A DNA stretch of 64,000 bases from Myxococcota bacterium (GCA_052033505.1 JBPOJN010000014.1:5599-69598); one strand, 5' to 3'. Positions 9,307 through 45,818 are shown, numbered from the stretch's first letter. Made by a program: numbers and translations. Notes: generated by a model from the sequence alone, not told the origin.

Positions 9307-10788
<1,482 letters not shown>

Positions 10789-16518: not shown

Positions 16519-16545
16519 TGAACTCTAAAAATTTAGGAGAACCCT

Positions 16546-19798: not shown

Positions 19799-21028
19799 TC
19801 AGTAACCCAACGCCCGCATCATCCCGCACGCTTTCACCAGCGTTTCTTCGTATTCTTTCTCCGGATCCGAATCCGCGACGATGCCGCCGCCGCTCCACAC
19901 GTGGGCCTGACCGTCCTTGATCACCATGGTGCGGATAGCGACATTGAATTGCGCACGCCCGTCGTCCCCGATGAAACCGATCGCCCCGCAATACACCTCA
20001 CGCGCGTGCGCCTCGAGCTCGCGGATGATCTGCAACGCGCGGATCTTCGGCGCTCCCGTGACGGAACCGCTGGGAAACGCCGCTTGTAGGAGATCCACAA
20101 TGTCTTTGTCCGGCGAGAGCCGGCCTTCGACGGTCGAAACGCGGTGGTGCACCTGCGCGTAGCTTTCGATCGAACCCAGATCCGTCACGCGTACGCTGCC
20201 CGGGACGCAGACGCGGCCTAAGTCGTTCCGCTCGAGATCCGTGATCATCAAAAGTTCGGCGTGGTCTTTCGGGCTCTTGGCCAATTCTTCTTTCAGTCTC
20301 CGATCTTCCTCCGGCGTTTTTCCGCGAGGCCGTGTGCCTTTGATGGGCCGCGTGACGACGCGGTCGCCGTCCACGGAGAGGAAGAGTTCGGGCGAGGCCG
20401 AAAGGATCTGGGCGTCGCCTAAATCCAAATAAGCGGAGTAGGGGGCGGGGGAGACGGATTGAAGTTTTTGAAAAATTGTTTCCGCGGGCTCGGTGACCGG
20501 AACGGTGAATTTCTGCGAAAGATTCACTTGATAACAATCACCGGCGGCGATGAGGTCTTTTACGCGCTCGACGTTTCGGATGTAGTCTTGCTTCGAAACG
20601 TTCGCATGGCCGGAAAAATCCTTCGGGAAAACGTTCTGACCTGAAGCGGACGGAAGGGAAACGGGTTCCAGCGAGATATCATCGAAATAACCGAACACGG
20701 CCTTGGGGATCAAAAGATCCGAACGCGGCGGAATTTTCGCGCCCGTTTGCATTTCATAACCTATGTAACCGATCCATCCCCTCTTGAGAGGGCTGGGGGA
20801 CGTGCCGGGCGCGCGCGTCTCCCGGACGGCATGACGCAAGTGGTCGAAGAAATTTGCGGAAGACGTTCCGTCCGCCGTTAAAATTTTTTTGGGACGGCTC
20901 GCCATCATTCGGAAGCCGTCGAAATAAAGTGAGGTTTGAACCAAGCGGGGAGACATTTTCATCCCTTTCGTAAGATCCACGAGGGAAAAATAACAACAAT
21001 ATTCCCCACATCGCCGATGAAAAGGCAT
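19799..21028 (-). CDS. pabB: aminodeoxychorismate synthase component I (chorismate-binding enzyme)
   Basis: The C-terminal chorismate-binding signature SGSVTGAPKIRALQIIRELEAHAREVYCGAIGFIGDDG is present. The size of 409 aa fits the short PabB/TrpE-like form. Confidence 0.8.
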   Translation of the reverse strand: MPFHRRCGEYCCYFSLVDLTKGMKMSPRLVQTSLYFDGFRMMASRPKKILTADGTSSANFFDHLRHAVRETRAPGTSPSPLKRGWIGYIGYEMQTGAKIPPRSDLLIPKAVFGYFDDISLEPVSLPSASGQNVFPKDFSGHANVSKQDYIRNVERVKDLIAAGDCYQVNLSQKFTVPVTEPAETIFQKLQSVSPAPYSAYLDLGDAQILSASPELFLSVDGDRVVTRPIKGTRPRGKTPEEDRRLKEELAKSPKDHAELLMITDLERNDLGRVCVPGSVRVTDLGSIESYAQVHHRVSTVEGRLSPDKDIVDLLQAAFPSGSVTGAPKIRALQIIRELEAHAREVYCGAIGFIGDDGRAQFNVAIRTMVIKDGQAHVWSGGGIVADSDPEKEYEETLVKACGMMRALGY

Positions 21029-21173
21029 GTCTTACACGGGTAGTATTTCTGCAGTCTCTGCCGTCATCGAAAGAAGCGTCACCGCGAGCGTCGATCCGAA
21101 TTCCGTCCTTCTTTTCAAGGCAAACAGCTCTCTTAAAGATTTCTCCGCGGTCTCGCCCGAAAGTTTTCATCGT

Positions 21174-21974
21174 ATGGCGTTTCACGTCCAGGGCCGCGAT
21201 CCTCGAAAAGGCGATCGCATTTGGATCCATGCCGGAGACGGCGACTGGAATAAGTACGGGATCCAAAGCCCCTCCGCAGACATCCAGCTCACGTCTCAGT
21301 TTCCTTTTTTTCACCCGAGCGATCTTGAGAAACAACCGGCCCGCTTCCCCGTGGTGACTCTCGAATACGACGGGAAAGCGTGGCACGTCGCGAAGGGTAG
21401 GGTTTGGGGACATGCGACTTTGGTCGACAAGATTTTGCAGATGCTCGAAAAATCGGACTGGCTTTCCTCCCCAGGAGCCGGAGCGAAAAATGAGAAGCAC
21501 TTCGAAATCATAAGGCCGGCACCTGCTCGAGTCGAAGCCCCCGTTGTGCCGCGATTGCACGCCGTACCGTCTCGACCCAGACGTGCGCGAAGTGTTGTCA
21601 CGGAAAAGCCAGTTTCTAAACCTTCCGCTCCGTCTGGAGAAAAAGTCTCTTATCAGGCGGTTTTAGAATCCGAGATGGTGCGCGTGTTGGGTCGAAAGCC
21701 TATGATCAATGACGTTGTCCATCTCGTTTGTGCGGCTAGGGCTCATTTTCCCCGAGGGTCCCGTGCCGCTTGGGAAATTGTGAAAAACGCTCAGGCTTTT
21801 CTCAAGGAAGATTGCCCTTGCGCCGTCGTCAAACTCGCGCGCCGTCAACTGAGTTGGGAAGCGACCCTCCTTGACCGTGGCTTCGAGCGGGACCGCAGCT
21901 TGCTCGCTCAACTCATTCAAGAGCCTTCGCTGAAGAGTTTCATTTTTACGAGGGTTCGCGTTTCCCGTCCTTGA
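21174..21974 (+). CDS. hypothetical protein
   Basis: Long ORF with GC3-rich codon usage and no recognisable motifs. The ORF-track start (21027) would overlap the divergent pabB start, so an internal Met (MAFHVQG) is preferred. Confidence 0.4.
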   Translation: MAFHVQGRDPRKGDRIWIHAGDGDWNKYGIQSPSADIQLTSQFPFFHPSDLEKQPARFPVVTLEYDGKAWHVAKGRVWGHATLVDKILQMLEKSDWLSSPGAGAKNEKHFEIIRPAPARVEAPVVPRLHAVPSRPRRARSVVTEKPVSKPSAPSGEKVSYQAVLESEMVRVLGRKPMINDVVHLVCAARAHFPRGSRAAWEIVKNAQAFLKEDCPCAVVKLARRQLSWEATLLDRGFERDRSLLAQLIQEPSLKSFIFTRVRVSRP

Positions 21975-21993
21975 GTTGCCAAAATCCGATCTT

Positions 21994-22389
21994 TTACGGA
22001 ATTCTTTTTATTCCTGGAAGCTGATCGAAGCCTTGGTCGAAGGAGAAAATGGTTTCGATCTTATATTTTTTCATTTGAGCCGCATGAAGCGCGTCCCGCG
22101 AGGAAAGCTTTTCGTAGCGGAGGACTAAGTCTTTTGCCGCCGACACGTCCGCTTCGGTGATGTCCCAAATTTTCTCGATGAAAGAATGCATTAAATCGAA
22201 GGCCGGCTGAATGAATTCTTTTCTATGGATGGCGGTGTAGCGATGGATGATTTCCTGCAGGACTTCGGCGTTGGTGACCAAGCTTTCCTTTTTTTGGATC
22301 AGTTCTTCCAGCGTCGCTTGCGTGATGCGTTTATTGGGATGGTCCGCTCCGATGAAATACATGACAATATTGGAATCCACGAAGATCAT
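21994..22389 (-). CDS. vapC: PIN-domain toxin (VapC-like)
   Basis: MIFVDSNIVMY...D (N-terminal acidic residue in the beta1 strand) and conserved downstream acidic residues. 131 aa. The 4-bp ATGA overlap with the upstream small gene is a classic TA arrangement. Confidence 0.75.
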   Translation of the reverse strand: MIFVDSNIVMYFIGADHPNKRITQATLEELIQKKESLVTNAEVLQEIIHRYTAIHRKEFIQPAFDLMHSFIEKIWDITEADVSAAKDLVLRYEKLSSRDALHAAQMKKYKIETIFSFDQGFDQLPGIKRIP

Positions 22390-22631
22390 GAGGCATAGCC
22401 TTTTTCGATCTCGGAGAGCATGTGATCGATGTCTCCCGTGGGGGCGTTGAGAGAACTGTACCGTCTAATCGCTTCCAGTTTCTCCCGAGGGCTTTTCCCG
22501 GCCTTCTCCGCGGCCAACCGGCGCAGCGCCTGCCGCACCCATTCCCCCAAACTCAGACCCGTCTCCCGGGCGATTTGCTGGAATGCTTTGTATTCTTTGG
22601 GTTCCAAGAGGACTTGGAGTCTTTTACTCAT
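22386..22631 (-). CDS. vapB: RHH/CopG-like antitoxin (VapB-like)
   Basis: 81 aa. N-terminal KRLQVLLEPKEYKAFQQIARETGLSLGEWVRQAL fits a ribbon-helix-helix beta-strand plus helix. Translationally coupled to the PIN gene. Confidence 0.65.
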   Translation of the reverse strand: MSKRLQVLLEPKEYKAFQQIARETGLSLGEWVRQALRRLAAEKAGKSPREKLEAIRRYSSLNAPTGDIDHMLSEIEKGYAS

Positions 22632-22731
22632 GTCATGAGTATATAGGACTCATGATGGTAGTCAATTAGGGTTTTCGGAGGAAGGTGGCGAAAAATGACA
22701 ACAATATCCTGCAAGCGTTCGATGAAACAGT

Positions 22732-23382
22732 ATGGGCAGCATCCGTCCCACTTCTATGTCCGCTGTGTCCCCTCTGTTGATCCCTTCTTCCGCGGTTCCG
22801 AGATCACTCGGTCTTGTGCCGCAATCGGCGTCTCCATCGATTGTGCGTGGATCGGAACGAGAGGACATTTTGTCTTTCTTGAGCGCCTGCACGGGCGTCC
22901 CAGCTGAGTTTAAAGATTCTTTCGTAGCGGCGAGAGACCAAATTCTTCAAAAAATCACCTCTTGGAGAGAAATCGAAACGCAGCGGGCGCTGGGTCTTTC
23001 ACCGCTAAAGCTCTTGGTCGACAAGGCTGTTTCCAATTGGGTGCAAGAGCAAGAAGTGAGCCGGGATTACGGGAGGTATGTGCGTTTCATGACGGGTCTC
23101 GGCAAGAGAATGTACCAGGATCGGGAAACCTTCATGAGAAGCGTCGCCGGCCCCCAAGGCGCCAGGAACACGCGCTCCCGGTTTTTGGACATCGAACGCA
23201 AAAAATTGAGAATCGGTTCCATCGTCTGTGATGCCCGTGGAAAACGGCAGGAGATCGTCGGGTTCAACGAAGACGGCCGTTTGATTTTTAAAGGGGGAAA
23301 AGGCACGTTTCTCCCCCATGATTTCAAGTTGGTCGAAGGCCCCAAACCGCAAAAGTCCGCAAAAAGTCTTAAGTCCCCGTAA
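22732..23382 (+). CDS. hypothetical protein
   Basis: ORF in a lower-GC segment with no recognisable domain. The start is uncertain. Confidence 0.3.
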   Translation: MGSIRPTSMSAVSPLLIPSSAVPRSLGLVPQSASPSIVRGSEREDILSFLSACTGVPAEFKDSFVAARDQILQKITSWREIETQRALGLSPLKLLVDKAVSNWVQEQEVSRDYGRYVRFMTGLGKRMYQDRETFMRSVAGPQGARNTRSRFLDIERKKLRIGSIVCDARGKRQEIVGFNEDGRLIFKGGKGTFLPHDFKLVEGPKPQKSAKSLKSP

Positions 23383-23482: not shown

Positions 23483-25168
23483 ATGCAAGTAAAACCGTTT
23501 TTTCCGGTGGTTCATCCGACGGGAGCCCAGCCTGTGCGGCTTTGGGTTTGTCCGGGGCAAGGATCTCAAAGTGTCGGCATGGGTCAGAAGTTGTACGACT
23601 CTTCCCGGACTTACCGCGAGACCTTCGATCGGGGACATGCGGCTCTTGTTTCAGAAGGCGTCGATTTACGGCGCTTGGCTTTCGAAGGACCCGCCGGTGA
23701 TTTGACCCGCACTCTCCACGCGCAACCTGCTTTGCTTGTTTCGAACGTAGCATTGGCGGAACACCTGCGTATCGAAGAAGGTATCGCACCGAGTCCCGGC
23801 GATCTTCTGGCGGGCCACAGTTTAGGTGAGTGGACGGCCTATACGATTTCAGGCGCATTGACGGTGGAGCAGGGAGCTTTGGCGGTTTATTGGCGTGGCC
23901 GGCTCATGGAAGAAGCTTTTCCCTTCGATCCCGCCACGCGTCCGATGACGGCTATTTTAGGATTGTCCGATCAAACTGTGATCTCGGCTTGCGCGGGAAT
24001 CAGCCGCGAAGGCCATATCGTGGTCGCCGCGAATTTCAACGCTCCGGGCCAGGTCGTCATCTCGGGCCATCCCGCCGCGGTCGCCGAAGCCTCGGATCTC
24101 TTGAAGTCCCGCGGCGCGGGCGTCAGCAACGCCTTTCCCGTCGCCGGTCCTTTCCATACGCCCATCCTCAGCGAAGCCCGCGAAAAACTAGCGGCTAAAA
24201 TCGCCGAACTCGGCATCGAATTCAGTATCCCGGAATTCCAAATCATTTCCAATTTTACGGGCCGTGAGATCGAGCCCGTGGGAGACCATCTCGGTTCTCT
24301 GTTGAACCAATTGACCGGATCCGTCCGTTGGACTGCGTCGATGGTTCGCGCTTGGGAGTTGGGAGCGGTGGAAATGGTGTCCTTGGACGTGTCGGGAAAC
24401 GTGCTGCAGGGATTCGCGAAGAAGATTTTTTCCCGTGAGAGACCGGTGCAGATCGTGGATCCGACAATATCGATGCATCAGCATGCCCTGAGGCAAGCAC
24501 CGGGTTCGATCAGTACGACCCGGTTTGCGGAAGATCCCGTACAGAAGAGAAACAACTGCTTGGAATTTTCCTACAATGCGGGCGCTATCGTTAAAATTGT
24601 CAGGAAACTTTTAAAAGAAGGCGACGTCCAAACCGCGTTGCTGGCCCTGAAAAACACTTACAATAGCGCGCGCGAAGCCGCCATGCGTGAGCTGAAATCG
24701 CATGCGGATTCCTTGGAAGTGATTCAAGCGATGAGGGAAGGCGGTTTCGTCGATGAGGCAGGCGATCTCATATGGCCCGATCCGGTCGTGCGGGATCTTG
24801 TGACTCATACGCTTCCTCCAGATAGTTTAACTGCCCTTACCCTCGGGAAAGATTCCATTTTCAGTAAGTTGGAGGCCTTGAGTCTAGCTCCTATCGACCA
24901 AGAAGACCTTATCTATTATGTCGCAAGCCGGTGGAATGGAGACGCGCAACGTCTTGAAAAAATCCTGAGTGCCCTTCGTTACCTTTTGGTCAAGGGCGAT
25001 CCTAAGAAGCACAAAAAATCCTTACTCCCGTTGATACAGTACAAAGACCAAAACGGCGAATCCCAGAAAGGCATTGATAGCTGGGAGGCCGTCATTCTGT
25101 ACGTGGATGGGGAAAAAGACGTCCAATTCCCCCATCCTGGAGCCATGAAGCAGGGAGATATTTTATGA
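23483..25168 (+). CDS. FabD-like malonyl-CoA:ACP transacylase domain protein with a 250-aa C-terminal extension
   Basis: CPGQGSQSVGMG (GQGSQ) and AGHSLGEWTA (GHSxG active-site Ser) motifs, then ...ANFNAPGQVVISG...GPFHTPIL as in FabD. A ~250-aa unknown tail follows and contains KSHADSLEVIQAM, which resembles ACP helix II (GADSLDTVEL). GAGGGGA RBS. Confidence 0.8.
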   Translation: MQVKPFFPVVHPTGAQPVRLWVCPGQGSQSVGMGQKLYDSSRTYRETFDRGHAALVSEGVDLRRLAFEGPAGDLTRTLHAQPALLVSNVALAEHLRIEEGIAPSPGDLLAGHSLGEWTAYTISGALTVEQGALAVYWRGRLMEEAFPFDPATRPMTAILGLSDQTVISACAGISREGHIVVAANFNAPGQVVISGHPAAVAEASDLLKSRGAGVSNAFPVAGPFHTPILSEAREKLAAKIAELGIEFSIPEFQIISNFTGREIEPVGDHLGSLLNQLTGSVRWTASMVRAWELGAVEMVSLDVSGNVLQGFAKKIFSRERPVQIVDPTISMHQHALRQAPGSISTTRFAEDPVQKRNNCLEFSYNAGAIVKIVRKLLKEGDVQTALLALKNTYNSAREAAMRELKSHADSLEVIQAMREGGFVDEAGDLIWPDPVVRDLVTHTLPPDSLTALTLGKDSIFSKLEALSLAPIDQEDLIYYVASRWNGDAQRLEKILSALRYLLVKGDPKKHKKSLLPLIQYKDQNGESQKGIDSWEAVILYVDGEKDVQFPHPGAMKQGDIL

Positions 25169-26844
25169 TCATGCAAGCCGGTTCGAAGTCTCCGACTCCA
25201 GGGCGCATCGCGATTGTGGGTTATGGATCTTGTAATTCCCTGGGAACCGCGGAAACGTCTTACTTAACGCGGACCGGTCGGTTCCAGGAAGCGTTGCCCG
25301 AATATGCCAGGCTCACGGGTATTACCGACAGGGATGTCATCGATCGCCGCATCGGCATTCGGGTTCCTCGCCTGGGGGATTTAGAGCAGCCGATCGATAT
25401 TCAGCGTTTTCAAGGACATCGACTGGAACGCCTTAAAGAAGATGGAACGATCAATGGCCGTACTTTACGAAAAGGCGCTGAACCTCTACTCGAACACACT
25501 TGGAAATTGCCCGTAGTCCATGCGGGTGCTTTGCCTTCCGGATGGGATTTGCTGAAAGAGGCCGGTTTTTCGGGGAAACCTTATGATCAGTTCAGTAGGG
25601 CGCATTTGATTTTGATGCGGTCTCTCGCGGAAGCCATGATCTCCATGGGCGTTCCTTGGTCCGAGATCGAGCGAAAAGTGCCCGAAAAGCAAAGAGCCGT
25701 CGCGGCTGCGTTCGGCATGGGGCCTGGAGAAGACTTATATGAAGGCATGGCTTTTCCCGCTCTCAAACGATCGGTCAGAAAAGATATAGTCGCCCGTTTT
25801 TTGCCCGATAATCCCGCTTATTGGCTCCAAAAAATATTAAAAGCCCGCCATGCCTCTTCGCGGGTCGCGGCCTGTAATACGGGTATCGCCAATCTTGAAT
25901 TCGCGTTTCTGGCCATGAAAGCGGGAATGGCCCGCTTCTACGCGGTCGCCTCCGCGGATTCCCTGCTTAATGAGATAGCGATCGTGGATTTCAACGCGCA
26001 AAAAGCTTTAGCCACGGATTTGTCCGTATCCAATCTCATGGATCATCCCAGCTTGGTTTCTCGACCCGGTACCACGGATCGTTCGGGTTTCGTCTTGGCC
26101 GAAGGCGGGGGCGTTCTTCTCTTGATGGAGGAAACTTTGGCTTTCGAGACCGGGGCCATTATTTACGCCTATCTGGACGGCGTTGCCACGGCTACCGGCC
26201 AGTCCAAGTCTCAAGATCCGGCAGCGCCTACCGACGGCGGCATTCTTTCTATGACGAACGGCCTTGAAATGGCCGCGGCTTCCTGCGGGATGACTGAAGA
26301 AGAATACGTCCAATTTTTGACCGTGATCAATGCCCACGGCACTTCCACACCCGCGGGAGATGAGAACGGAATGGCGGGTTACGATAGAGTTTTAAGGGAA
26401 AAAAGACGTGATCCCAGATCTCCCGTGTTTGTCGTTTACGGTAAGGGAGGCCCTCGTTTGGATGGTATTCCTAGCGCGAGACGGGTGGGTAACGGAGGCA
26501 CGGGACATTCATTGGGAGGAGCGTCCTTGGTCGCAGCGGTCGAGACGATCCAAATGCACCGTTACGGAATCATTCCTCCTTCCGTTGGAAGTTTAGATAG
26601 CGTCGATCCTAGAATCTTGGAATCCGCTCATCTTTTGTATCCAACTCAACCATTGAGTGAGAACGTCGTGAAGGCTCAAACTAGCGCCCAAGGATTCGGT
26701 GACAGCAACGGAGATATGTTCACCAGCCAAAATCCGGATCATGGAACCCAAAATCCCGAAGCGGTCGCCAGACGTGACCGATGGACGGAAGAAGTGAAGT
26801 CAGGGCAAAAGAAGCCGGCGGAGTTCGTGCCGGTGATTGAGTAA
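25165..26844 (+). CDS. beta-ketoacyl synthase (KS) family protein, divergent
   Basis: KS motifs: RIAIVGYGSCNSLG at the N-terminus, active-site Cys237 in VAACNTG (TGT at 25873-25875), DRSGFVLAEGGGVLLL, His in INAHGTSTPAGD, and GHSLGGAS. About 70 extra residues lie N-terminal to the Cys compared with FabF. The start overlaps the upstream stop (ATGA). Confidence 0.75.
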   Translation: MIMQAGSKSPTPGRIAIVGYGSCNSLGTAETSYLTRTGRFQEALPEYARLTGITDRDVIDRRIGIRVPRLGDLEQPIDIQRFQGHRLERLKEDGTINGRTLRKGAEPLLEHTWKLPVVHAGALPSGWDLLKEAGFSGKPYDQFSRAHLILMRSLAEAMISMGVPWSEIERKVPEKQRAVAAAFGMGPGEDLYEGMAFPALKRSVRKDIVARFLPDNPAYWLQKILKARHASSRVAACNTGIANLEFAFLAMKAGMARFYAVASADSLLNEIAIVDFNAQKALATDLSVSNLMDHPSLVSRPGTTDRSGFVLAEGGGVLLLMEETLAFETGAIIYAYLDGVATATGQSKSQDPAAPTDGGILSMTNGLEMAAASCGMTEEEYVQFLTVINAHGTSTPAGDENGMAGYDRVLREKRRDPRSPVFVVYGKGGPRLDGIPSARRVGNGGTGHSLGGASLVAAVETIQMHRYGIIPPSVGSLDSVDPRILESAHLLYPTQPLSENVVKAQTSAQGFGDSNGDMFTSQNPDHGTQNPEAVARRDRWTEEVKSGQKKPAEFVPVIE

Positions 26845-26872
26845 GAAAATAATTTTCATCGAAAGGTCGATT

Positions 26873-28753
26873 ATGAAATTAGCGAATATCCCCGCGAGTC
26901 AAGTTTTGGTGACGGTTGGAAGCGGTTGCATGATCTCGGCCGCCGGCACCACGGAGTCCCATCGCGCCGCCAGTATCGGACATCCTGCGATGATCGGTTT
27001 CGCGGCTTTCGACGCGCGTTTGGTCGACATCGATCCTGCGAGCAAAGTGGAAGCGCCTATTTTTTTACGAAGAGGTGGAGACGACGCGGGCCAGCCGATT
27101 TCGCTCGATGAAATCAATGCGCGGTGGGGAACGCGCCTCCGTGAGGACATGGGCAGTCGTTTCCTGTCCAAAAATTTCGTGGCCGCCCACGTGCCCACGG
27201 ACATAGGCGCTCCGCTCGCGCACCGCTTGGAGCGCGGTTCGGAAGAGGGTGGTTTAAGGGAAAGAGCCGGACTGACGTTCAAGGATCTCCGCGCCTCGCC
27301 TCTGTCCGATATGGGATTGTTATTCGAAGACGATCCGCGTTTGGGCCCAAGCCTCCAGGCCCAGATGTTTTTGTACGCGGGCCTCGGCGCCCTGTCCGCA
27401 CTGCCGCTGCCTCTTTCGCGGATTTTACCGGATGCTTACCGCTTCCGCGTCTCGGCCTCCACGTGTTTTCCGGGCAATGATTCTTGGGAAAGTTTATCGC
27501 AGAGCCTGCAAACCGGATCCGTGCGCGACAAGGCGGCCTATCGTTTGGCGTCGGCTTTGAATACGCATGGACCGGCGCTTTTGAATACTATGCTGTCCCC
27601 GTCTTTTCCGCTGTCCTCGACCAAAAGGGCCATGGAGCGGGATCCCGAATATTTGACAAAAATTTTGGTGAATGACTCGTCTCAGTCGCTTTTAAGGAAC
27701 GTCCCTCAAGCTCCATTGGTCTCCAGCGCCGCGTGTTCCAGCGCCCTCGTTAATTTCTGCGATATCGCCCCGCATCTACAACTAGCTGCGACGGGCAGAC
27801 GTGGATCGCCTCAAGTGGTGTTGTGGACTTCGGCCGACGCTTCTTTAGGGCCCGACGCTAGAATTTTAGAAGGATTCGGTCCCGCCGCCATGATGACGGG
27901 TCAGAAATTGAAAGCGGACCGTAGCATTTCGCAAGCGCTCGCGCCTTTCGACGTCGATGCGAGCGGCACGATCGTCGGTCACGCGGGGTACGGCATTTTG
28001 ATCACGACCCTCGAATTCGCACTGAGGAATTTTTTGGACATCACTTCCATCATCGTCGGCTGGGGACAAAGCGGAGAGACCGGAGGCAAAGGTCATTTCG
28101 CGGGCGTGGGTTACGGCGGCGAAAATGCGATCATCCTTTCGCTCATGATGGCTTTTGAGGAGCATGGCTACGGCGTCAACGATTTCGATCATCTCATCGC
28201 TCATGCCACGGGCACGAAGACGAATTCCAAAACCGATCTTGGCACTGTCCATGACGCACGGAGAGCCGTCGCACAAATGCAGGGCTACACGGAGGCGTTA
28301 CGGCGCATGACCGTCGGGGCTCCCAAAGCGGCGAATCCAGGCCCCGTCCATCCCATGGGCCCTGCGGGCCACTTGGCGACCGATCAAGGAAACCAATATT
28401 TGATGGGCCGCCCCACGGTCGGGATCCCGAACTTGCGTCAAATCGACCCGGAATTGGCCGCAGAAGCGCAGCATTTCGAGCTATCGAGCGCTGCAATAGC
28501 GGGTAAGGAAGACGGTGGAGAGATTTCTCCCGTACAAGGCTTCGGTGGTTACGTGGCGGCCATGGCGCGTCGCTCCGCCCATGCTGACGCTTTCCGGCGT
28601 TATCCTATCAGCGACTCGAAATTGATCGATGCTTATTTGGAACGCCAAACCGACATTCGCCAGGCGCGTGAACGATCGGAAGCCGATTATGATCGGACCA
28701 TGGGATCCACTTTAGCCCAAGCCGTGCAACATCGCTGGTCCGGTGCGAAATAA
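26873..28753 (+). CDS. second KS-family protein (KS/CLF-like partner)
   Basis: SSAACSSALVNF (TGT at 27734-27736) matches the canonical KS DTACSSSL context. DASGTIVGHAGYGILITTLE and IAHATGTKTNSKTD resemble EAHGTGT. The third His motif is degenerate. Start chosen at ATG 26873 after a GAAAGG RBS; the ORF track uses TTG 26837, overlapping the upstream stop. Confidence 0.65.
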   Translation: MKLANIPASQVLVTVGSGCMISAAGTTESHRAASIGHPAMIGFAAFDARLVDIDPASKVEAPIFLRRGGDDAGQPISLDEINARWGTRLREDMGSRFLSKNFVAAHVPTDIGAPLAHRLERGSEEGGLRERAGLTFKDLRASPLSDMGLLFEDDPRLGPSLQAQMFLYAGLGALSALPLPLSRILPDAYRFRVSASTCFPGNDSWESLSQSLQTGSVRDKAAYRLASALNTHGPALLNTMLSPSFPLSSTKRAMERDPEYLTKILVNDSSQSLLRNVPQAPLVSSAACSSALVNFCDIAPHLQLAATGRRGSPQVVLWTSADASLGPDARILEGFGPAAMMTGQKLKADRSISQALAPFDVDASGTIVGHAGYGILITTLEFALRNFLDITSIIVGWGQSGETGGKGHFAGVGYGGENAIILSLMMAFEEHGYGVNDFDHLIAHATGTKTNSKTDLGTVHDARRAVAQMQGYTEALRRMTVGAPKAANPGPVHPMGPAGHLATDQGNQYLMGRPTVGIPNLRQIDPELAAEAQHFELSSAAIAGKEDGGEISPVQGFGGYVAAMARRSAHADAFRRYPISDSKLIDAYLERQTDIRQARERSEADYDRTMGSTLAQAVQHRWSGAK

Positions 28754-28772
28754 AATTTAAGGAAACTTCATT

Positions 28773-30917
28773 ATGCCCATCACCCTCGAAAAACCCGTTG
28801 GAAAAGGTGCCCTGATTTTTGGAGCGCATCCTTTAGGCATGAAAGCGGTCGCGGATCGTTCGATTTGGAGCGCGCAACGAGAACTGCCGCATCCCATCGC
28901 GGGAGCCCAGGGCAAGACGGCCTTGATCATCGGCAGTACATCGCCGGGTTATGGAAGCGCCACGGCGCTTGCGTTGCGCGCGGCGGGTTTCGGGAAGATC
29001 ATCGGGATCGGTTATGAACGTCCACCGACCCTTGATAAGAACTTCCGTGCATCGCCGGGCTGGTATCTCACGCGACACCTGCATGAAGCCGGCATCATCG
29101 ATCGTACGTATTTCGCCGATGCCTTCGCCGACGACACGCGCCGACGCGTGATGCGGGATATGGTCGCGAACGACGAGCGCATTGACCTCATGGTTTACAG
29201 CCTGGCCGCGGGCACGCGTTCGTATGGCACACAGAAATGGAATTCTTCGCTGAAAGTCATCGGGGAATCTTTGGACGTGACGGCGCTCGATTACAATATG
29301 TTGGACTACAAAGGCGTCAAATTGAAACCGGCGCGCATCGAAGCCGCGACGGAGGAGCAGATTGCCCACACTGTGAAAGTCATGGGGGGAGAGGATTTAA
29401 GTTTTTGGGTGGGCGCTTTGTTCATGAGCGGCCGCCTCAATCCTGGCGCGTTCATAACGTCGCGCAGTTATATCGGTCCTGAGGGGTTACTCGATTTAAG
29501 GCGCATTTATCGGGACGGTAGCATCGGTGCGTCCAAGAAAGATAATGAACGCGTGACGCGTGAATGGGACGCACGCCTTCGCGACATCGACGTCCGCGCG
29601 TTGGCGGAAGTCGACCCGGCCGTCGTGACGATAGCCTCCGCCCAGATTCCCGCGATCGCGAAATACCTCGCGGCCTACCTCGGCGTCGCCGATGGCGGAG
29701 CGAAGATTTATCGCGATCCCATCGGAGTTTCCGTGGATCTCGTGCGCGCTTTGTATGGTCAGGGCGAGCCCTGGAAGAATCTTTTGGATGACGAAGGCCG
29801 GCTGCGTCTCGATGGTCACGAAATGCAGGAAGCCCTACAAGCCTCCATCTTGGAGCAGTGGAATGCCAACAACCAACCTGGTGAGCCTACGGAAACTTTG
29901 AAAGAAGGGTTGGATCGTTACCGCGAGAACTATTTAGGACTTTTCGGTTTCGGTTTGCCGGAAGTGGACTACTCGAAACCTTTTGAGCTGGATACGACGC
30001 TCGCCGGCGGTATCGTGGATTTGCTTTCAGAACCCATGCCGACTCCGATCGTGATTCCCGCGGCGCGCGAACCCCAACCGGAAATTACGTCCGCGCCCGA
30101 AGTAAAAGTCACCGCCGTTGGGGCCTTCTTCGATGCCTTACTGTCTCGAGACAACGAACCCGGGGTTATGGCCCAATCGGAAGGCGATAAAAAAGTTTTC
30201 GTCTCACAATATTCTCTGAATCCCAGTACGATTCGCCGTTATGTGGCGGCAACGCAGCAGCCGCAGGATGGAAACGTGCCGTCGGCCTTTACGTTCGTCA
30301 TGGCGTTCCCGAATATTTTGGACGCAATCAAAGACGTTTTGAGAACGGCCGCCATTAAGTCCGTCGTGCATGCGGCGGAAGAAGTGACGATGTTGGCGCC
30401 GATTCCGGCCGACGGGTCGGTGACGGTGCGTGCGTGGCTCGCCAAAAAAGTCGGAAAAGGCCCCGTAGTTACGATCGTACAGCGTGAGCTCGTGGGATCG
30501 GACGGAACGCTGTTGGCGACGGGAAAGACCACTTTGGCGGTCGGCGGCGATCTTTCCGCCCTTCCGGCCGTACTGGCGAAACCCGAAGATTCTGCGGGGG
30601 AACTCCTTAGTCGCATTCACGTCGACCAAAGCTTGATCGATATTTACAGCAAGGCGAGCGAGGATACCAATCCCATCCATATTTCGGAAGAAGCGGCGAA
30701 AGCCTTGGGTCTTTCTTCGACGATCGCCCATGGCATGCTGACTTTGGGACTCGCGAACCGCGATAATCCTTCTAACTATACCGCCAAATGGAAGACCCCG
30801 GTTCAAGCCGGAGACACAGTGGAATTCCGACGCATGGACGACAATAAAATCGTCGGCGTCATCGCGCGCGGTGGACAAATGTTCCTCGCGATCGAATTGA
30901 CCAAAAAATCTTCTTAG
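28773..30917 (+). CDS. fusion protein: FabV/Ter-type trans-2-enoyl reductase (N) + MaoC-like hot-dog dehydratase (C)
   Basis: Residues 1-400 align motif-by-motif with FabV: HPLGMKAV, LIIGSTSPGYGSATALA, VYSLAAGTRSYGT, TVKVMGGEDLSFWVGALFMSGRL, YIGPEGLLDLRRIYRDGSIGASKKD, EGRLRLD and YLGLFGFGLPEVDYSKP. The C-terminal 230 aa carry the MaoC/hot-dog signature DTNPIHISEEAAKALGLSSTIAHGM. Confidence 0.8.
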   Translation: MPITLEKPVGKGALIFGAHPLGMKAVADRSIWSAQRELPHPIAGAQGKTALIIGSTSPGYGSATALALRAAGFGKIIGIGYERPPTLDKNFRASPGWYLTRHLHEAGIIDRTYFADAFADDTRRRVMRDMVANDERIDLMVYSLAAGTRSYGTQKWNSSLKVIGESLDVTALDYNMLDYKGVKLKPARIEAATEEQIAHTVKVMGGEDLSFWVGALFMSGRLNPGAFITSRSYIGPEGLLDLRRIYRDGSIGASKKDNERVTREWDARLRDIDVRALAEVDPAVVTIASAQIPAIAKYLAAYLGVADGGAKIYRDPIGVSVDLVRALYGQGEPWKNLLDDEGRLRLDGHEMQEALQASILEQWNANNQPGEPTETLKEGLDRYRENYLGLFGFGLPEVDYSKPFELDTTLAGGIVDLLSEPMPTPIVIPAAREPQPEITSAPEVKVTAVGAFFDALLSRDNEPGVMAQSEGDKKVFVSQYSLNPSTIRRYVAATQQPQDGNVPSAFTFVMAFPNILDAIKDVLRTAAIKSVVHAAEEVTMLAPIPADGSVTVRAWLAKKVGKGPVVTIVQRELVGSDGTLLATGKTTLAVGGDLSALPAVLAKPEDSAGELLSRIHVDQSLIDIYSKASEDTNPIHISEEAAKALGLSSTIAHGMLTLGLANRDNPSNYTAKWKTPVQAGDTVEFRRMDDNKIVGVIARGGQMFLAIELTKKSS

Positions 30918-30966
30918 TTTTTGCGCAACTCTTTCTCCATTCAAGCGACACATTGCGACACTTTTT

Positions 30967-32397
30967 ATGGCGATTGATCTTCCTCGGGTGCGGCTTAGCG
31001 ATTTAGTTCATGCGGCGAGTCAGTATGTTGTTCCCGCCGTGTCCCGGCGCGCGGTTTCCTTGCGTCACAACCTGGTTTCCGGTGCGGATAGCCTGGCGCA
31101 ATCCATTGACCGCCGTTTTCGGGATCGCTTGGAGGGGCGGGCGCGGACTTTCGCAGAAAGAGCGCTTGGATTCGATTTCCGCGATTCCGTTCCGTTCGTT
31201 CCGCGTACGGTCGAAAAACTCTTGGGCTCCGAACATACGGCCTACAACGTCTTAGGGCTCGCGCAAACGATGGTCGATATCGCGGCGTCGCTCATGCACT
31301 ATGCTTCGATCGTGGGCGTGCGGGAATTCATGCAAGCCTACAAGACGGTCGGCAGTTCCCTCGACCGTTTATCCGTCCATCCGGAATTCGCGCCATACGC
31401 GCAGTTGCATTACCAGCATTGGATCGAGGATTACGCGAAGATCCACGGTCTTTCCGTACGCTTCGAAAACACAGAGCTCGTCCCTCAGGAAGGACCCGCG
31501 GTTTATGCGGTTTTTTGCCATTCCAGTATCTTTCCCGATTTCTTCCTGCCCTATCTCGACCCGCGCGGAGCCTTCGTGGCGGACGCGTACAATTTCCGCG
31601 ACAATCCCGTCAGCCGCCGTTTCGGGTTCAGTTTGATGGGCGACTTGTTCGGGCAGCCCTTGGTCGACCGCAAGGATCCGGCGCGAAACGAGAAATTGTT
31701 CGATCACATCATCGACGTCTCCGCACGTCACGGCATACGGCCGATTTGGTTCCCCAACGGCACGCGCGTCCCGCGTGCGTGGAAAGACGATGGGACGCTG
31801 GACCGCGCCGGTTTTTACTCCAGCGCGCCGAACGCGAAAAATGCGAAACATTACCTGCAAGCCGGGGGCGTGGCGGTAAACGCCGTGCGTTTGGCTAAAA
31901 AAGTGGGACGGACGGTAAAGGTGGTCGTGGTCACCATTCAAGGTCCGGAATACGTCATGCCGAAGAGCGCCGGGAAGCCGCCTTTCATTCAGCCCACGCG
32001 TCTTCGCGGGGACATCGTGCACCGTTTCGTCCAGGTCATCGAAGTCTCCCCGGACAGCAAAGAGAGACAGGTCATTACGGATTTGGGCCGCAATCTGCAT
32101 CTGCAGGCCAAGGCGGATCTAGGAATCGATGAGTACCTCGTCGAATGCGTCGGTCGCTGGAGCGGCAGCGAGCAAAAAGCAAAAGCCTTCGCTGAAAAAG
32201 CCAAGAATGGAAAAGGCGAGATTTGGTTCATCCTCGCCGACCGTATTCGCGCCATCCATCCATCACTCCCGGAGCGGGCGCAGTTCATCCAGCGACTTCT
32301 GGAAGCGGTCGATATTTTGAACCCCAACGGAGCCTTGGATACGCTTCTCGAAGAAGTCACCGCCTTCATGATGAAACACCAATTCGACGCGCATTGA
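30967..32397 (+). CDS. putative PlsC/LPLAT-superfamily acyltransferase (divergent)
   Basis: FPNGTRV resembles acyltransferase motif III (FPEGTR), followed by a hydrophobic KVVVVTIQGP block (motif IV-like). The candidate motif I is CHSSIFPD, which is HX5D rather than the canonical HX4D. It sits 49 bp downstream of the ER-DH gene. Confidence 0.45.
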   Translation: MAIDLPRVRLSDLVHAASQYVVPAVSRRAVSLRHNLVSGADSLAQSIDRRFRDRLEGRARTFAERALGFDFRDSVPFVPRTVEKLLGSEHTAYNVLGLAQTMVDIAASLMHYASIVGVREFMQAYKTVGSSLDRLSVHPEFAPYAQLHYQHWIEDYAKIHGLSVRFENTELVPQEGPAVYAVFCHSSIFPDFFLPYLDPRGAFVADAYNFRDNPVSRRFGFSLMGDLFGQPLVDRKDPARNEKLFDHIIDVSARHGIRPIWFPNGTRVPRAWKDDGTLDRAGFYSSAPNAKNAKHYLQAGGVAVNAVRLAKKVGRTVKVVVVTIQGPEYVMPKSAGKPPFIQPTRLRGDIVHRFVQVIEVSPDSKERQVITDLGRNLHLQAKADLGIDEYLVECVGRWSGSEQKAKAFAEKAKNGKGEIWFILADRIRAIHPSLPERAQFIQRLLEAVDILNPNGALDTLLEEVTAFMMKHQFDAH

Positions 32398-32517: not shown

Positions 32518-33255
32518 TTGATTTTATTCATTATGCCCATTGAGCCCATCCAGAGTGGTCTTCAGTCCAGCATCTCTTTGCCGCCGTCCCGCGTGATTTG
32601 GACGGGGACGGACGCCGCCTCGCGCGTGTCTTCGAAGCATTTCGGGGAAGCGATTCCGGATGTGGCGGACATTCGGGCGAATCCCGCGCTCTTGGAGATG
32701 TTCGGACGTTTGGGCGTACTCGAGAGGCTCCGCCGGAAATTGAATACGTTATCGCGGAAGCGGGCGCGCCTCGTGCCGGGCAAGAAGACCGTCGCGTGCG
32801 CGTTGCGCGCCTGTGAGGAGACGGATTTCGAGGACGTGATTTTCGCGGGCGTGGAGTTCGCGGAGGAATACCGCGGCGAAGAAGATACGATGGCGGGCGT
32901 CCTCGCGCACGAGTACGGCCACCTGCTCTCGGACTGGACGAAGGGTTTGAATCCCGACGCCATGACCTGGGAGGAAATTTTCGAGAGGCGTAAGGAAGAA
33001 GAGGCCGCGGCCGACGGTTACGCTGGGAAAATGCTCTTCCAGATGGGTTATTCGCCCGAGGGCATGGTGAAATTCTTGAAGAAGATCCAGAAGAAGGAAT
33101 GCCTCAAATACCACTCGCCGTCCACGCGCGAGGCCATCATCCGCCGTGCGTTCTCCGAAGCGCACCGCAAACAAAATCAAATGGTCAATCTCCGTTCGAT
33201 GTTCTCCGGCATCGCCTCCAATCCCTTCACGGCCAAACTCATCGCAGTGGCGTAA
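32518..33255 (+). CDS. putative zinc metalloprotease (HEXXH)
   Basis: VLAHEYGHLLSDW contains HEYGH (32908-32922) in a small 245-aa protein. No other family features were resolved. Confidence 0.4.
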   Translation: MILFIMPIEPIQSGLQSSISLPPSRVIWTGTDAASRVSSKHFGEAIPDVADIRANPALLEMFGRLGVLERLRRKLNTLSRKRARLVPGKKTVACALRACEETDFEDVIFAGVEFAEEYRGEEDTMAGVLAHEYGHLLSDWTKGLNPDAMTWEEIFERRKEEEAAADGYAGKMLFQMGYSPEGMVKFLKKIQKKECLKYHSPSTREAIIRRAFSEAHRKQNQMVNLRSMFSGIASNPFTAKLIAVA

Positions 33256-33282
33256 CGGTTCGTTTTTAGGTAAGCCGCGGCC

Positions 33283-34014
33283 ATGCGGCTTTTTTCAAAA
33301 ATTCCCATTTTATTTTTATTGGTTTTCTGGGGCGCTTGCGGCGCTTCGGACCCCGTTCCTGCGCCTGTGCCCACGCAGGTCATCGATGCGACCACGGTAG
33401 GTGGAATCCAGGGCGTCGTTTCGTTCGCGGGGACGCCTCCATCCGCGGCGAAAATCCCGGTCGCGAGTTTTTCGGAATGCGGCAATCCGTCCGGTATCGA
33501 TACCGATATCTTGATTCAAAATGGCAAAGTCAAAAACGCCTTCGTGGCGATCACGAAAGGTTTGGAAAATTACCGGTTCGAGAAGACTTCGGAAGAAGTC
33601 ATGATCGATCAGCGTCATTGCCTCTATGAACCGCGCGTGATCGGGCTCCAAGTCGGTCAGACCTTGGTCGTGAAAAACAGCGATCCGGCCCTGCATAATA
33701 TCCACGCGCAGCCGCTACAGTCGCGGGGTTTTAATGTCGGCATGCCCCGGCAAGCCTCCGATATCCGCAAGACTTTCGAAGTACCTGAGGTGATGATTCC
33801 CCTGCGCTGCGACGTGCACCCCTGGATGCGGGCTTATGCGGGCATCCTGCCTCATCCTTATTTTTCGGTGACCGGTGACGACGGAAGCTTCCGCCTGAAG
33901 AACGTCCCGCCCGGGGATTATATCGTGACCGTGTGGCACGAAAAATTGGGCAAAAAAGAATTCCCGATATCGGTGGGCGCCCGCGAAGAGAAGACGCTGG
34001 AAGTTTCGTTTTGA
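33283..34014 (+). CDS. cupredoxin-like (type-1 copper) lipoprotein
   Basis: Lipoprotein signal MRLFSKIPILFLLVFWGACGAS. The C-terminal RCDVHPWM (33808-33828) matches the Cys-x2-His-x2-Met ligand loop of amicyanin/pseudoazurin-type blue copper proteins (CTPHPFM). A candidate upstream His is in ALHNIHAQP. Confidence 0.5.
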   Translation: MRLFSKIPILFLLVFWGACGASDPVPAPVPTQVIDATTVGGIQGVVSFAGTPPSAAKIPVASFSECGNPSGIDTDILIQNGKVKNAFVAITKGLENYRFEKTSEEVMIDQRHCLYEPRVIGLQVGQTLVVKNSDPALHNIHAQPLQSRGFNVGMPRQASDIRKTFEVPEVMIPLRCDVHPWMRAYAGILPHPYFSVTGDDGSFRLKNVPPGDYIVTVWHEKLGKKEFPISVGAREEKTLEVSF

Positions 34015-39900: not shown

Positions 39901-39976
39901 TAAGATGGCCGTCACCGCGATACAAAAGCAGGCGCCGCATCTCCTTGAAGACAACGCCTCCGGCCAGGCGGCTTGA
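36950..39976 (+). CDS. large (1008 aa) protein with hydrophobic N-terminus and internal amidase-signature (AS) domain
   Basis: Residues ~620-690 read GYDTAGSSSAEAYALGL...LAIGTDTGGSITAPCGAMELFGWIPEPGTVSRANMIPYATHLDTPGVMG. This matches the AS-family core (GGSSGG...GTDxGGSIRxPA..CG..G.KPT.G.VSR.G.......D..G.M) including the Ser nucleophile and cis-Ser. An Ala/Gly-rich hydrophobic segment near the N-terminus suggests membrane anchoring. An AT-rich 140-bp promoter-like region lies upstream. Confidence 0.6.
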   Translation: MIGFPSVGTHLSNSLGTSSSGSIPFSPEATSLMTGPTPAESLYGVMNGMTLVAAVSGSPALARVCSHPAFAAASLGLGAYFQYQAAGQTQSLIAGGLLALSAAGTAVNAYSFYRGLKAGWQSLHFSTQLAVYDRVRDVNLPPEVRAAIVEARNHWADLKDERPERIAAAVQSSFRGAAPEQAASTPHLFVRERRLEAEDMASGAARHATDAAWKTSPDAEKMLRACAPEGSAWDRLIVLRDAPGHLEYVRRSVLHAEEAQRVASASPRNWVSEARGDASYAPWQKTVGEWLGRNVQGALLYGIPAFVTLQVLAGGLDYAQGQLAGEGFFKQIVHSLLGLAPAAATYLYNARQGSRRFNVSPAAHQEIVVERFLDPELQKRTVERLASAVPPLEPGESARYAEQCRVNLDRVESQIAVLESLEIPIIADRAEVSSGAPAFLKENDRVRKFTPIRVPDPKRPYRYDHRPNVPDTEERKRIRTEIKAMPIVSLEEAIRAGRVTHVDIYNMIRDHSVSKDGAVITRPLEGKLGRKLLRLAQEADRKGEIRHFTLVKDLFEGIDGVVTAGSKTMHLTDFGKSPLVQRLVDQGFVPIPCGLTAGANGPDGLYNGHGAVGNSKKAGYDTAGSSSAEAYALGLKDFPIRLAIGTDTGGSITAPCGAMELFGWIPEPGTVSRANMIPYATHLDTPGVMGVDKGEVLNLARLLTLSPYQSRFDESPRSPALYYFESNLQLASEKNRERFDREVKKFRLQGLSATALDERFSAYRTIPLDLYADSYAAAAMALMNPLQENARGEPQRYILDRRLQMRMGRAHALLMTPDEKHGNLFNRYLHLHVRFRELFQKKFPAGFTLITPAPEAVALEDFIPNGPAGALLDRHDQQGGMLKNRVYHAAFVDAERGMVIEGKMEDVLAVSLTEGTAAFQETLKQKIGDKIKNIYPKFAERRFGEFIDVLIAEVRKRTDARGISFDPSDVFEEAKLDQCVGDVVKMAVTAIQKQAPHLLEDNASGQAA

Positions 39977-40511: not shown

Positions 40512-40736
40512 ATGCTTCGCACCCAAATCAGTCTTTCAGAAACCGAGTATCAATGGGCTAAGAACGCTTCTAAGAAACTCGGCATTTCGTTGGCCGAGCT
40601 TCTGAGGCGTTCTCTCAGGACCGTGTTACCCGTTTCCACGGAAAAGCCTTGGATGCGGTTCGCCGGATCCGTGGAGTCTGGGCGTAGTGACTCCAGTCAG
40701 ACCGTTGACGACCTTATTTATGGCCAAAAAGACTAG
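40512..40736 (+). CDS. RHH-type antitoxin
   Basis: MLRTQISLSETEYQWAKNASKKLGISLAELLRRSL fits a ribbon-helix-helix fold (beta-strand then two helices). It overlaps the downstream PIN gene by 17 nt. Confidence 0.55.
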   Translation: MLRTQISLSETEYQWAKNASKKLGISLAELLRRSLRTVLPVSTEKPWMRFAGSVESGRSDSSQTVDDLIYGQKD

Positions 40737-41181
40737 CTTCCTCCACGAGCGTCGGCGAGAGCTGTGTCGCGGGAAGCGACCTAAGGCTTATGTCGACACG
40801 GGAGCCCTCATCGCCTTCCTGGATCGTTCCGATACTTATCACCCTTTATTCGTGCGCCTCTTCGCGGATCCAGCGTCTTTGATCACTACGCCTCTCGTGA
40901 TCGCGGAAGGACATGGTTGGTTTCTGAAACGCTTCGATGTGACGCGCGCGCTGCAGTTTCTGAATTTCGTCGAAGAGATCTCCCCCTTGGAAATCGTGTC
41001 CGTCGGTGAAAAAGAAATGGCGGGAGCCGGAGACATTCTCCGAAAATTTTCCGATCAAGATTTAACTTTGGCCGACGCCTGCGGTTTATGGCTCATGAAA
41101 AAACTCAAAATCCAAACCTGCTGGTCCACCGACCGCCACCTCTCGTTGACCGGGGTGCCGTTGGTGATTCATGAAATGTGA
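40720..41181 (+). CDS. PIN-domain toxin (VapC-like)
   Basis: AYVDTGALIAFLDRSD (N-terminal PIN Asp), ...VIAEGHGW... and ...LTLADACGLWLM...CWSTDRH (C-terminal Asp). About 150 aa. Confidence 0.7.
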   Translation: MAKKTSFLHERRRELCRGKRPKAYVDTGALIAFLDRSDTYHPLFVRLFADPASLITTPLVIAEGHGWFLKRFDVTRALQFLNFVEEISPLEIVSVGEKEMAGAGDILRKFSDQDLTLADACGLWLMKKLKIQTCWSTDRHLSLTGVPLVIHEM

Positions 41182-45791: not shown

Positions 45792-45818
45792 AAGTTGCCA
45801 CGAATGTGAGTGTAGGGG

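Follow-up and report, generated by a model that had tools for sequence, protein, structure and literature searches.

Bacterial fatty acid synthesis, which is an antibiotic target, is usually seen as the work of a nearly invariant set of Fab enzymes. In the canonical type II fatty acid synthase (FAS II) the genes form the cluster plsX-fabH-fabD-fabG-acpP-fabF, complemented by fabZ and by fabI or fabV, and few exceptions to the set are known (FabY, FabV, FabK). Mycobacteria have a FAS-II with the gene order fabD-acpM-kasA-kasB and dehydratases of the HadAB or HtdX type, while the type I synthases of fungi and of the CMN bacteria (Corynebacterium, Mycobacterium, Nocardia) are megasynthases with an integrated acyl carrier protein (ACP) and phosphopantetheinyl transferase (PPTase). 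The exception closest to our subject is FabY of Pseudomonas aeruginosa, which is described in PMC4549310 and PMC8666670 (both with reference to Yuan et al. 2012) as an established FabH-independent initiator that condenses acetyl-CoA with malonyl-ACP.

Here we describe an operon of five plus-strand genes in a 64,000-nucleotide stretch of DNA from a Myxococcota bacterium (GCA_052033505.1 JBPOJN010000014.1:5599-69598; this whole 64-kb stretch is called the window below). The genes encode, in order, a FabD-like acyltransferase with a C-terminal tail (AT), two ketosynthases (KS1 and KS2), a fusion of an enoyl reductase with a dehydratase (ER-DH) and a PlsC-like acyltransferase, as five separate proteins of 476–714 amino acids (aa). 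The five open reading frames (ORFs) are present, intact and tightly packed (Table 1) where an earlier note, made by a model from the sequence alone, had placed them, and searches with Pfam and NCBIfam hidden Markov models, as that note had proposed, bear out their domain content. None of the enzymes reaches the equivalog or subfamily cut-off of the NCBIfam models of FabD, FabF and FabV. The operon would work like a type II FAS, with most of its parts non-orthologous or strongly divergent. The reading we favour, with our confidence in it evenly divided, is that it forms a type II FAS module of a non-canonical kind that uses the housekeeping ACP, and in which KS2 initiates chains, KS1 elongates them and the product of the last gene loads a glycerolipid.

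Sequence and structural analysis of the five enzymes

The AT matches PF00698 at E=3e-34, with its FabD-like part covering aa 1 to about 326, and its best solved relatives are FabD enzymes (about 2e-45). It has the GHSxG nucleophile and the malonyl-binding Arg of a type II FAS transacylase, within the conserved motifs GHSLGE and YWRGRLM, as well as a conserved GPFH; its score against TIGR00128 (fabD), 211.7 bits, lies below the cut-off of 260.9. The extra tail that had been noticed earlier is present, at about 230 aa (aa ~330–561) rather than 250 aa. It is conserved in seven loci, with an invariant QGD at its C-terminal end, and a profile of the tail found no match in Pfam or the PDB. The suggestion that a DSL-containing element of this tail is ACP-like failed, as the Ser of ‘ADSLE’ is not conserved (six homologues have R, H, N, L or Q in its place), the tail has no PF00550 match, and its profile found no ACP, or anything else, in the PDB. 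Judged from its motifs, the AT is a predicted FabD-like malonyl-CoA:ACP transacylase (MCAT) with a family-specific C-terminal domain that is no ACP. Its gene overlaps that of KS1 by 4 bp, as read directly at the junction (ATGA) and as the note had stated, and the same overlap is kept in every related locus having both genes. Because this overlap is conserved and the AT tail is family-specific, our analysis suggests that the two products form a complex.

KS1 (559 aa) gives weak matches to PF00109 and PF02801, and its C237, H391 and H448 do not vary among 14 homologues. A profile of the KS1 family matches the KS of the yeast FAS alpha subunit at 7e-35 (positions 10–362 on FAS2 residues 1017–1425) and Mycobacterium tuberculosis FAS-I at 1.7e-34 along almost the whole profile (positions 7–523 on residues 2436–2988). 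These alignments to type I FAS KSs take in the N-terminal 230 residues, which FabF lacks, and KS1 thus has the N-terminal extension of fungal-type FAS KSs. The match to FabF is confined to the C-terminal half (2e-28), and that to FabY (4cw4; 1e-26) is also weaker than those to the fungal and CMN enzymes. KS1 and KS2 show remote kinship, with 19% identity. KS1 is probably the elongating enzyme. Its family is small, with about 17 clusters among 5.8 billion followed by a sharp drop to generic FabF. KS1 had no relative in a pattern-limited scan of 185,579 GTDB species genomes, and a metagenome scan with one generic search pattern, the matches to which were dominated by ordinary FabF, found no further copies of the operon.

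KS2, by contrast with KS1, has no Pfam match and shows only weak similarity to FabF in profile searches. Its C288, H444, K485 and H493 recur unchanged in all of 25 homologues, and the ‘degenerate His motifs’ ascribed to it by the note are therefore not degenerate: both His and the Lys are intact, and both KS1 and KS2 have the Cys-His-His triad of condensing enzymes. An AlphaFold2 model of KS2 (pLDDT, the predicted local distance difference test score, of 82.5; pTM, the predicted template modelling score, of 0.89) was matched best by Foldseek to the KSs of mycobacterial FAS-I and yeast FAS and to FabY 4cw4, with TM-scores of 0.61–0.68. The model is closer to 4cw4 (0.63 normalised to the query and 0.62 to the target) than to FabF (about 0.51), and it has the FabY-type fold, that is, a KAS I/II fold of about 630 aa with insertions. 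At the level of sequence, KS2 has no match to 4cw4 at E<=1, with 14% identity in the structural alignment, and orthology to PA5174 is not seen. Structurally, both KS1 and KS2 are in the extended class common to Pseudomonas FabY and the fungal and mycobacterial type I FAS. Because KS2 and FabH exchange positions (see below) and KS2 has a FabY-class fold, KS2 is probably the chain-initiating condensing enzyme, and from this context we put forward the joining of acetyl-CoA to malonyl-ACP by condensation as its candidate reaction.

The KS2 family comprises hundreds of homologues at 46–55% identity, with a mean column identity of 69%, and has no Pfam or NCBIfam model. Its hosts include Polyangiales, Polyangiaceae, Kofleriaceae, Thermoanaerobaculia, Methylomirabilota, Steroidobacteraceae and Luteibacter, cultured strains among them; for example, Steroidobacter agaridevorans (L056) and Luteibacter anthropi (L077) are found among GTDB loci L014–L093. 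A scan of GTDB genomes with KS2 returned only relatives at <=55% identity, and the homologues are almost always solitary genes. A conserved membrane protein of 259 aa lies a median of about 19 bp 3' of the solitary KS2 homologue in 37 gammaproteobacterial loci. No Pfam model matches this protein, and the operon-type loci do not have it. One of the related operons described below, L008, has at the KS2 position (7692–9962) a far more divergent 756-aa paralogue with an N-terminal extension of about 130 aa, which retains the Cys, His, Lys and His residues.

The fusion of FabV with a hot-dog dehydratase, reported in the note, is real, with the FabV domains and PF01575 in a single ORF. A FabV-type ER (aa 1 to about 412) is joined by a Pro-rich linker to a double hotdog of the HtdX/MaoC type (aa ~472–714), with Pfam matches to PF12241 (1.6e-43), PF07055, PF12242, PF01575 (MaoC; 9.5e-13) and PF13452, and with FabV (5e-45) and HtdX (1e-11) as solved relatives. 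Conserved motifs are Y-X8-K, the nucleotide-binding GSTSxGYGSA and the hydratase-2 motif D-x-N-P-I-H. The protein thus has the Y-X8-K and the NADH site of a FabV-type enoyl-ACP reductase, and scores 242 bits against the FabV subfamily model, below the cut-off of 403; its DH part is, from its motif, a predicted 3-hydroxyacyl dehydratase. The fusion is rare: it was found in only seven clusters among the 5.8 billion, followed by about 35 clusters of unfused FabV-like proteins at 44–50% identity and then by ordinary FabV at about 35%. These unfused proteins of about 418 aa (L009, P0132–P0164), 44–50% identical to the ER domain, form a distinct clade; one of the clusters, from a Myxococcota metagenome-assembled genome (MAG), is named ‘hypothetical protein’, and in L009, the single such locus examined, the gene is solitary and adjoins an alpha/beta hydrolase.

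The product of the last gene (476 aa) had been taken for a distant member of the lysophospholipid acyltransferase (LPLAT) superfamily, and its predicted structure (pLDDT 92) supports this, showing the PlsC-type alpha/beta fold with long helical N- and C-terminal extensions. Against PF01553 it scores 16.8 bits (E=0.006), below the gathering cut-off of 23, while three of the 38 members of its family match this model at E<=0.01 (best 1e-14). The family profile matches PlsC at 3.7e-5, placing H185..D191 on HX4D and FPNGTR on FPEGTR. H185 shows a conservation of 90% or more, D191 does not vary among the five closest homologues but does beyond them, and FPNGTR is replaced by FINGGR in relatives. The family has 49 representatives among 1.84 billion. 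Compared with PlsC and the soluble plant glycerol-3-phosphate acyltransferase (GPAT), the protein differs in its length, its helical extensions, its H-X5-D spacing and its score below the Pfam threshold.

Comparison with described systems

With canonical FAS II the operon shares a discrete MCAT, putative initiating and elongating KSs, a DH, a FabV-type ER and, in its relatives, a ketoreductase (KR), as well as a putative gene for glycerolipid acyl transfer in the cluster. At the same time, it differs in the lack of acpP in the cluster, in extended KSs of 560–630 aa instead of FabH and FabF, in a DH that is a MaoC/HtdX double hotdog fused to the ER rather than FabZ or FabA, in the 230-aa extra domain of its MCAT and in a PlsC-fold enzyme in place of PlsX. 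FabY of P. aeruginosa and KS2 have in common a length of about 630 aa, a KAS I/II-type fold with large insertions and the Cys-His-His triad, and genomic context suggests that KS2 replaces FabH as FabY does; FabY, on the other hand, is a lone gene, whereas KS2 lies within an operon and belongs to a separate family.

The KSs of yeast FAS2 and M. tuberculosis FAS-I are both the best solved sequence relatives of KS1 and the best structural matches of KS2, and the DH domain of the operon matches PF13452 (FAS1_DH_region), another likeness to the fungal and CMN type I synthases. Unlike these, the operon encodes free-standing proteins, with no megasynthase and no integrated ACP or PPTase, and its ER is FabV, of the short-chain dehydrogenase/reductase (SDR) type, and not a flavin mononucleotide-dependent triose-phosphate isomerase (TIM) barrel; moreover, its AT is nearer to FabD than to the fungal malonyl/palmitoyl transferase. 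In mycobacterial FAS-II, as here, an AT is followed by two tandem Cys-His-His KSs, and the (3R)-hydroxyacyl dehydratase is of the MaoC type, HtdX being the closest solved relative of our DH. The operon departs from that system by having no AcpM between the AT and the KSs, by KSs that are not KasA- or KasB-like (KS1 scores 61 bits against a cut-off of 560, and KS2 23.4 bits) and by having, in place of InhA, a FabV-type ER that forms one protein with the DH.

The statement of the earlier note that no known pathway fits (aryl-polyene, polyunsaturated fatty acid (PUFA), type II polyketide synthase (PKS) or olefin) was upheld, as there is no ACP, both KSs keep their Cys and the ER is FabV. A heterodimer of KS and chain length factor, as in type II PKS and aryl-polyene systems, was considered and rejected, both KSs having retained the full triad. 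A PUFA synthase was rejected as well, there being no PfaD-type ER and no ACP, and the AT scoring 72.7 bits against the PfaA subfamily model (cut-off 1010). In the literature we found no description of the operon, of a FabV-MaoC fusion or of the KS2 family.

Related operons and the missing ketoreductase

The FabV-MaoC operon is known only from a few uncultured bacteria. The order AT, KS1, KS2, ER-DH and PlsC-like gene, followed by the same two downstream genes, recurs in four metagenomic lineages (L003/L004, L005, L007 and L008), with 38–66% protein identity to the window. Upstream, L003, L007 and L008 have pabB (on the minus strand), a Lactamase_B gene, a PALP enzyme and an SDR of 330–338 aa, and then the AT gene; L005 begins inside its AT gene, and its coverage starts there. 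The SDR directly upstream of the AT in these relatives is a plausible ketoreductase. A variant in L012/L013 (KS1 46% identical) has the order SDR-AT-KS1-FabH-unfused FabV, where the FabH, with a canonical Cys-His-Asn triad, stands at the position of KS2. The gene after FabV in L012 was tried as a PlsC-like homologue and turned out to be unrelated to that family.

The earlier note had described the operon as lacking a KR, a thioesterase and an ACP. None of the three is present in the window, but the missing KR is specific to the window, given the SDR in L003, L007, L008 and L012/L013. Homologues of the KR, PALP and Lactamase_B genes are found nowhere in the 64 kb, and so the 3-ketoacyl-ACP reductase expected of a type II FAS is lacking from the window. 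Synteny with L003, L007 and L008 shows that the position of the relatives' Lactamase_B, 655-aa PALP enzyme and SDR genes is occupied here by 21027–23382, a segment made up of a toxin-antitoxin pair and two orphan ORFs, neither of which has a homologue in the related loci. Considering that the relatives carry the SDR while the window has the toxin-antitoxin pair and orphan ORFs instead, the missing KR is a secondary loss in this genome, where it went together with its two neighbours through a toxin-antitoxin insertion.

Dedicated secondary-lipid pathways normally come with their own ACP. Neither the window nor six related loci contain a gene for an ACP, a PPTase, a thioesterase, a recognisable tailoring enzyme or a transporter; a regular-expression scan for ACP motifs gave nothing credible in the window and five related loci, and no PP-binding domain was matched in the window or the related loci.

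The canonical fab cluster

As the earlier note had pointed out, rpmF lies elsewhere in the window and is followed by neither plsX nor fabH. It is separated from rpiB by one unrelated DUF4215 gene, and the fab genes expected there are missing. In a Polyangiales MAG (L035), the corresponding order is yceD-rpmF-KS2 homologue-Cys-rich lipoprotein-fabD-fabG-acpP-fabF-rpiB, with no FabH or PlsX match among the cluster genes in Pfam searches and no FabH match within 10 kb. The KS2 homologue of L035 thus stands where a canonical fab cluster has FabH, while in L012/L013 it is FabH that stands at the position of KS2. The order in Geobacter is rpmF-plsX-fabH-fabD-fabG-acpP-fabF-rpiB. The Cys-rich gene after the KS2 homologue of L035 was compared with the DUF4215 gene of the window as a possible homologue and is not homologous to it. 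DUF4215 also adjoins the operon in L007.

A possible divergent FAS II and its alternatives

The note took the operon for a system dedicated to a specialised lipid and distinct from the housekeeping fab cluster, which now seems doubtful: a divergent FAS II on the housekeeping ACP fits at least as well, and is supported by the lack of a private ACP and of other pathway-specific genes, by the rpmF–rpiB synteny, by the full enzyme set in the relatives, by FabH in the place of KS2 in L012/L013 and by the KS2 homologue within the fab cluster of L035. Every FAS II activity except the KR (which is in the relatives' operon) is represented with intact catalytic motifs, which argues for predicted catalytic competence, and the presence of a glycerolipid acyltransferase step next to the fab genes, which recalls the plsX of canonical clusters, likewise speaks for a FAS. 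In the scheme that we infer, substrates included, malonate would be loaded onto the ACP by the FabD-like enzyme, and chains would be started by the FabY-class KS2 standing in for FabH and elongated by KS1, an extended KS whose closest likeness is to those of the type I FAS of fungi and mycobacteria. The 3-ketoacyl-ACP would then be reduced by an SDR-type KR, encoded just upstream in the relatives and supplied here from another locus. The fused protein would dehydrate the product with its HtdX/MaoC double hotdog and reduce the enoyl intermediate with its FabV domain, and the product of the last gene would transfer the finished acyl chain from its thioester to a lipid acceptor of the glycerol-phosphate type. 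The operon may be the main FAS of its lineage.

Several observations weigh against this reading. KS2 homologues are solitary in most genomes, including those of cultured Steroidobacter and Luteibacter that presumably have an ordinary FAS II, meaning that the KS2 family is not always a FabH replacement, and in other phyla they coexist with ordinary FabF. The variant in L010/L011 (KS1 40% identical) keeps only AT-KS1-KS2, with no SDR seen in L010. The cluster in L035 is near-identical to that in L034, and both represent one lineage and one observation. In the PlsC-like protein the motif H-S-S-I-F-P-D has the spacing H-X5-D instead of HX4D, and there is no predicted transmembrane segment to serve as a membrane anchor. 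Furthermore, our evidence comes from a 64-kb window; a complete canonical fab set may lie elsewhere, in which case the operon would be accessory, and, with the KR lost from the window copy, there must be one encoded at another locus, possibly the FabG of a canonical FAS II.

Such an accessory role is the core of what we regard as the most serious competing account, a tentative one that we find possible though somewhat improbable, namely a dedicated secondary-lipid pathway beside an ordinary FAS II, in which the PlsC-like enzyme puts a special (e.g. very long) chain on a particular lipid. It would agree with enzymes that all score far below the NCBIfam equivalog or subfamily cut-offs, with the resemblance of an AT, two tandem KSs and an HtdX-like dehydratase to the mycobacterial elongation system (fabD-(acpM)-kasA-kasB), with the restriction of the operon to few lineages, with a KR that is dispensable in cis in the window, with the occurrence of KS2 homologues alongside canonical FabF in Polyangiales and with the dedicated acyltransferase that closes the operon. 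What speaks for a FAS instead is that the related loci contain no dedicated ACP, PPTase, thioesterase, recognisable tailoring, regulatory or export gene, that the variant operon includes FabH, a de novo initiator, that the canonical fab cluster is absent from the rpmF–rpiB position and that the genes around the operon have housekeeping roles, pabB and pabC among them. The lack of a nearby ACP gene could also suggest elongation on CoA thioesters, independent of any ACP, where FabV would act as a trans-2-enoyl-CoA reductase (TER), MaoC as an R-specific enoyl-CoA hydratase and the KSs on CoA thioesters, with acyl-CoA passed to the PlsC-like enzyme. True enoyl-CoA reductases are indeed among the relatives of FabV (the TERs of T. 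denticola and Clostridium are among its PDB matches), CoA esters are common substrates of MaoC/PhaJ enzymes, and PlsC-type enzymes can use acyl-CoA. However, the operon opens with a FabD-type transacylase with an intact active site, overlapping KS1 by 4 bp, which would have no role without a carrier protein, and Cys-His-His KSs of the same class (FabY, fungal FAS KS) use malonyl-ACP, which makes this explanation distinctly improbable; the HtdX/HadAB relatives take ACP or CoA substrates and do not discriminate.

Least probable, and in our view very hard to sustain, is that the five genes form no functional unit at all and are adjacent through the kinship of their few carriers, or that the operon is decaying after the loss of its KR. 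The synteny does extend beyond the five genes in the closest relatives, from pabB to Urate_ox_N, and the KR and two further upstream genes have been lost in the window. At the same time, none of the five ORFs is disrupted or has lost a catalytic motif, and the order AT-KS1-(KS2 or FabH) persists between differing flanks at 40–50% protein identity; the 4-bp overlap is likewise conserved, and the ER and DH are physically fused. A bolder extension of the FAS reading, which we consider unlikely, is that a small uncultured lineage dropped canonical FAS II and makes all of its fatty acids with the replacement set; no free-standing bacterial protein would then be closer to the KS of fungal and mycobacterial FAS I than KS1 and KS2, and the non-covalent complex that these would form with the tailed AT and the ER-DH fusion would be a living intermediate between dissociated FAS II and the fungal-type FAS I.

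Should the FAS module we favour be borne out, such a wholesale non-orthologous replacement would join the few known exceptions named above, and at least three uncharacterised protein families would be defined, those of KS1, of the PlsC-like enzyme and of the domain in the AT tail. The KS2 family, highly conserved and widespread yet without a model, would provide a putative alternative FAS initiator that is also present in cultured Steroidobacter and Luteibacter. Free-standing KSs that resemble the fungal and mycobacterial FAS I KS over their full length also bear on the origin of the megasynthases, a subject for which 10.1101/336578 cites Bukhari, Jakob and Maier (Structure 2014).

Gene junctions and flanking genes

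Apart from the AT/KS1 overlap, the earlier note had listed a 49-bp gap, which is indeed found between the ER-DH gene and the last gene, and further overlaps or short gaps. Of the latter, the gap between KS2 and ER-DH measures 19 bp, while KS1 and KS2 do not overlap and are 28 bp apart. This last distance follows from the start of KS2 at ATG 26873, which we prefer over TTG 26837: homologues align from that Met, the database protein P0001 begins at the corresponding Met, and a GAAAGG ribosome-binding site lies upstream. The GC content and third-position GC content (GC3) of the operon are close to those of neighbouring genes, which argues that the operon is native and not a recent import. No Rfam family or tRNA was found in the window, and a promoter and terminator scan stayed at chance level.

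Table 1. Coordinates of the operon and of the flanking features discussed in the text
Feature	Position in window	Strand	Description	Basis
AT gene	23483..25168	+	FabD-like transacylase with tail	PF00698
KS1 gene	25165..26844	+	extended ketosynthase	PF00109 + PF02801
KS2 gene	26873..28753	+	626-aa ketosynthase of FabY/fungal FAS class	fold match; no Pfam
ER-DH gene	28773..30917	+	FabV + HtdX/MaoC fusion	Pfam
Last gene	30967..32397	+	soluble PlsC/GPAT-fold acyltransferase, LPLAT superfamily	predicted structure
Two co-conserved downstream genes	32518..34014	+		Pfam, synteny
Replacement segment, orphan ORF	21027-21974	+	315 aa	no Pfam
Replacement segment, toxin-antitoxin pair	21994-22631	-	PIN/RHH	Pfam
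Replacement segment, orphan ORF	22732-23382	+	216 aa	no Pfam
rpmF	10868-11047	+		motif
DUF4215 gene	11181-12803	+	Cys-rich repeats	Pfam
rpiB	12816-13277	+		Pfam

The two genes downstream of the operon may or may not belong to the system. They follow the acyltransferase gene in L003, L005, L007 and L008 at 54–60% identity; the first encodes a 245-aa protein with an HEYGH (HExxH) motif, for which one homologue gives a weak hint of an M48 peptidase, and the second a CarboxypepD_reg protein of 243 aa that is lipoprotein-like and begins with what resembles a signal peptide.

Other features of the window

Four consecutive large ORFs without a Pfam match (1075, 899, 335 and 661 aa) occupy 42564–51607 on the minus strand, a region of lower GC content (0.49–0.52), strong negative AT skew and positive GC skew, which may be an inserted island. 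Adjoining it are a PIN-domain gene (40687–41181) and a gene for an HTH_38/HTH_32 protein, possibly an IS30-like transposase (41423–42427). A 1008-aa ORF at 36950–39976 has only a partial amidase-signature domain (aa 550–690), the remainder being without a Pfam match. The window is also rich in secreted repeat proteins (11181–12803, 14413–18594 and 51861–58316), which hints at a lineage resembling Myxococcota or Bdellovibrionota. Among them are the Cys-rich DUF4215 protein, Chlam_PMP and beta-helix proteins, and one of 1150 aa that contains 21 thrombospondin type 3 repeats and precedes a second TSP_3 protein.

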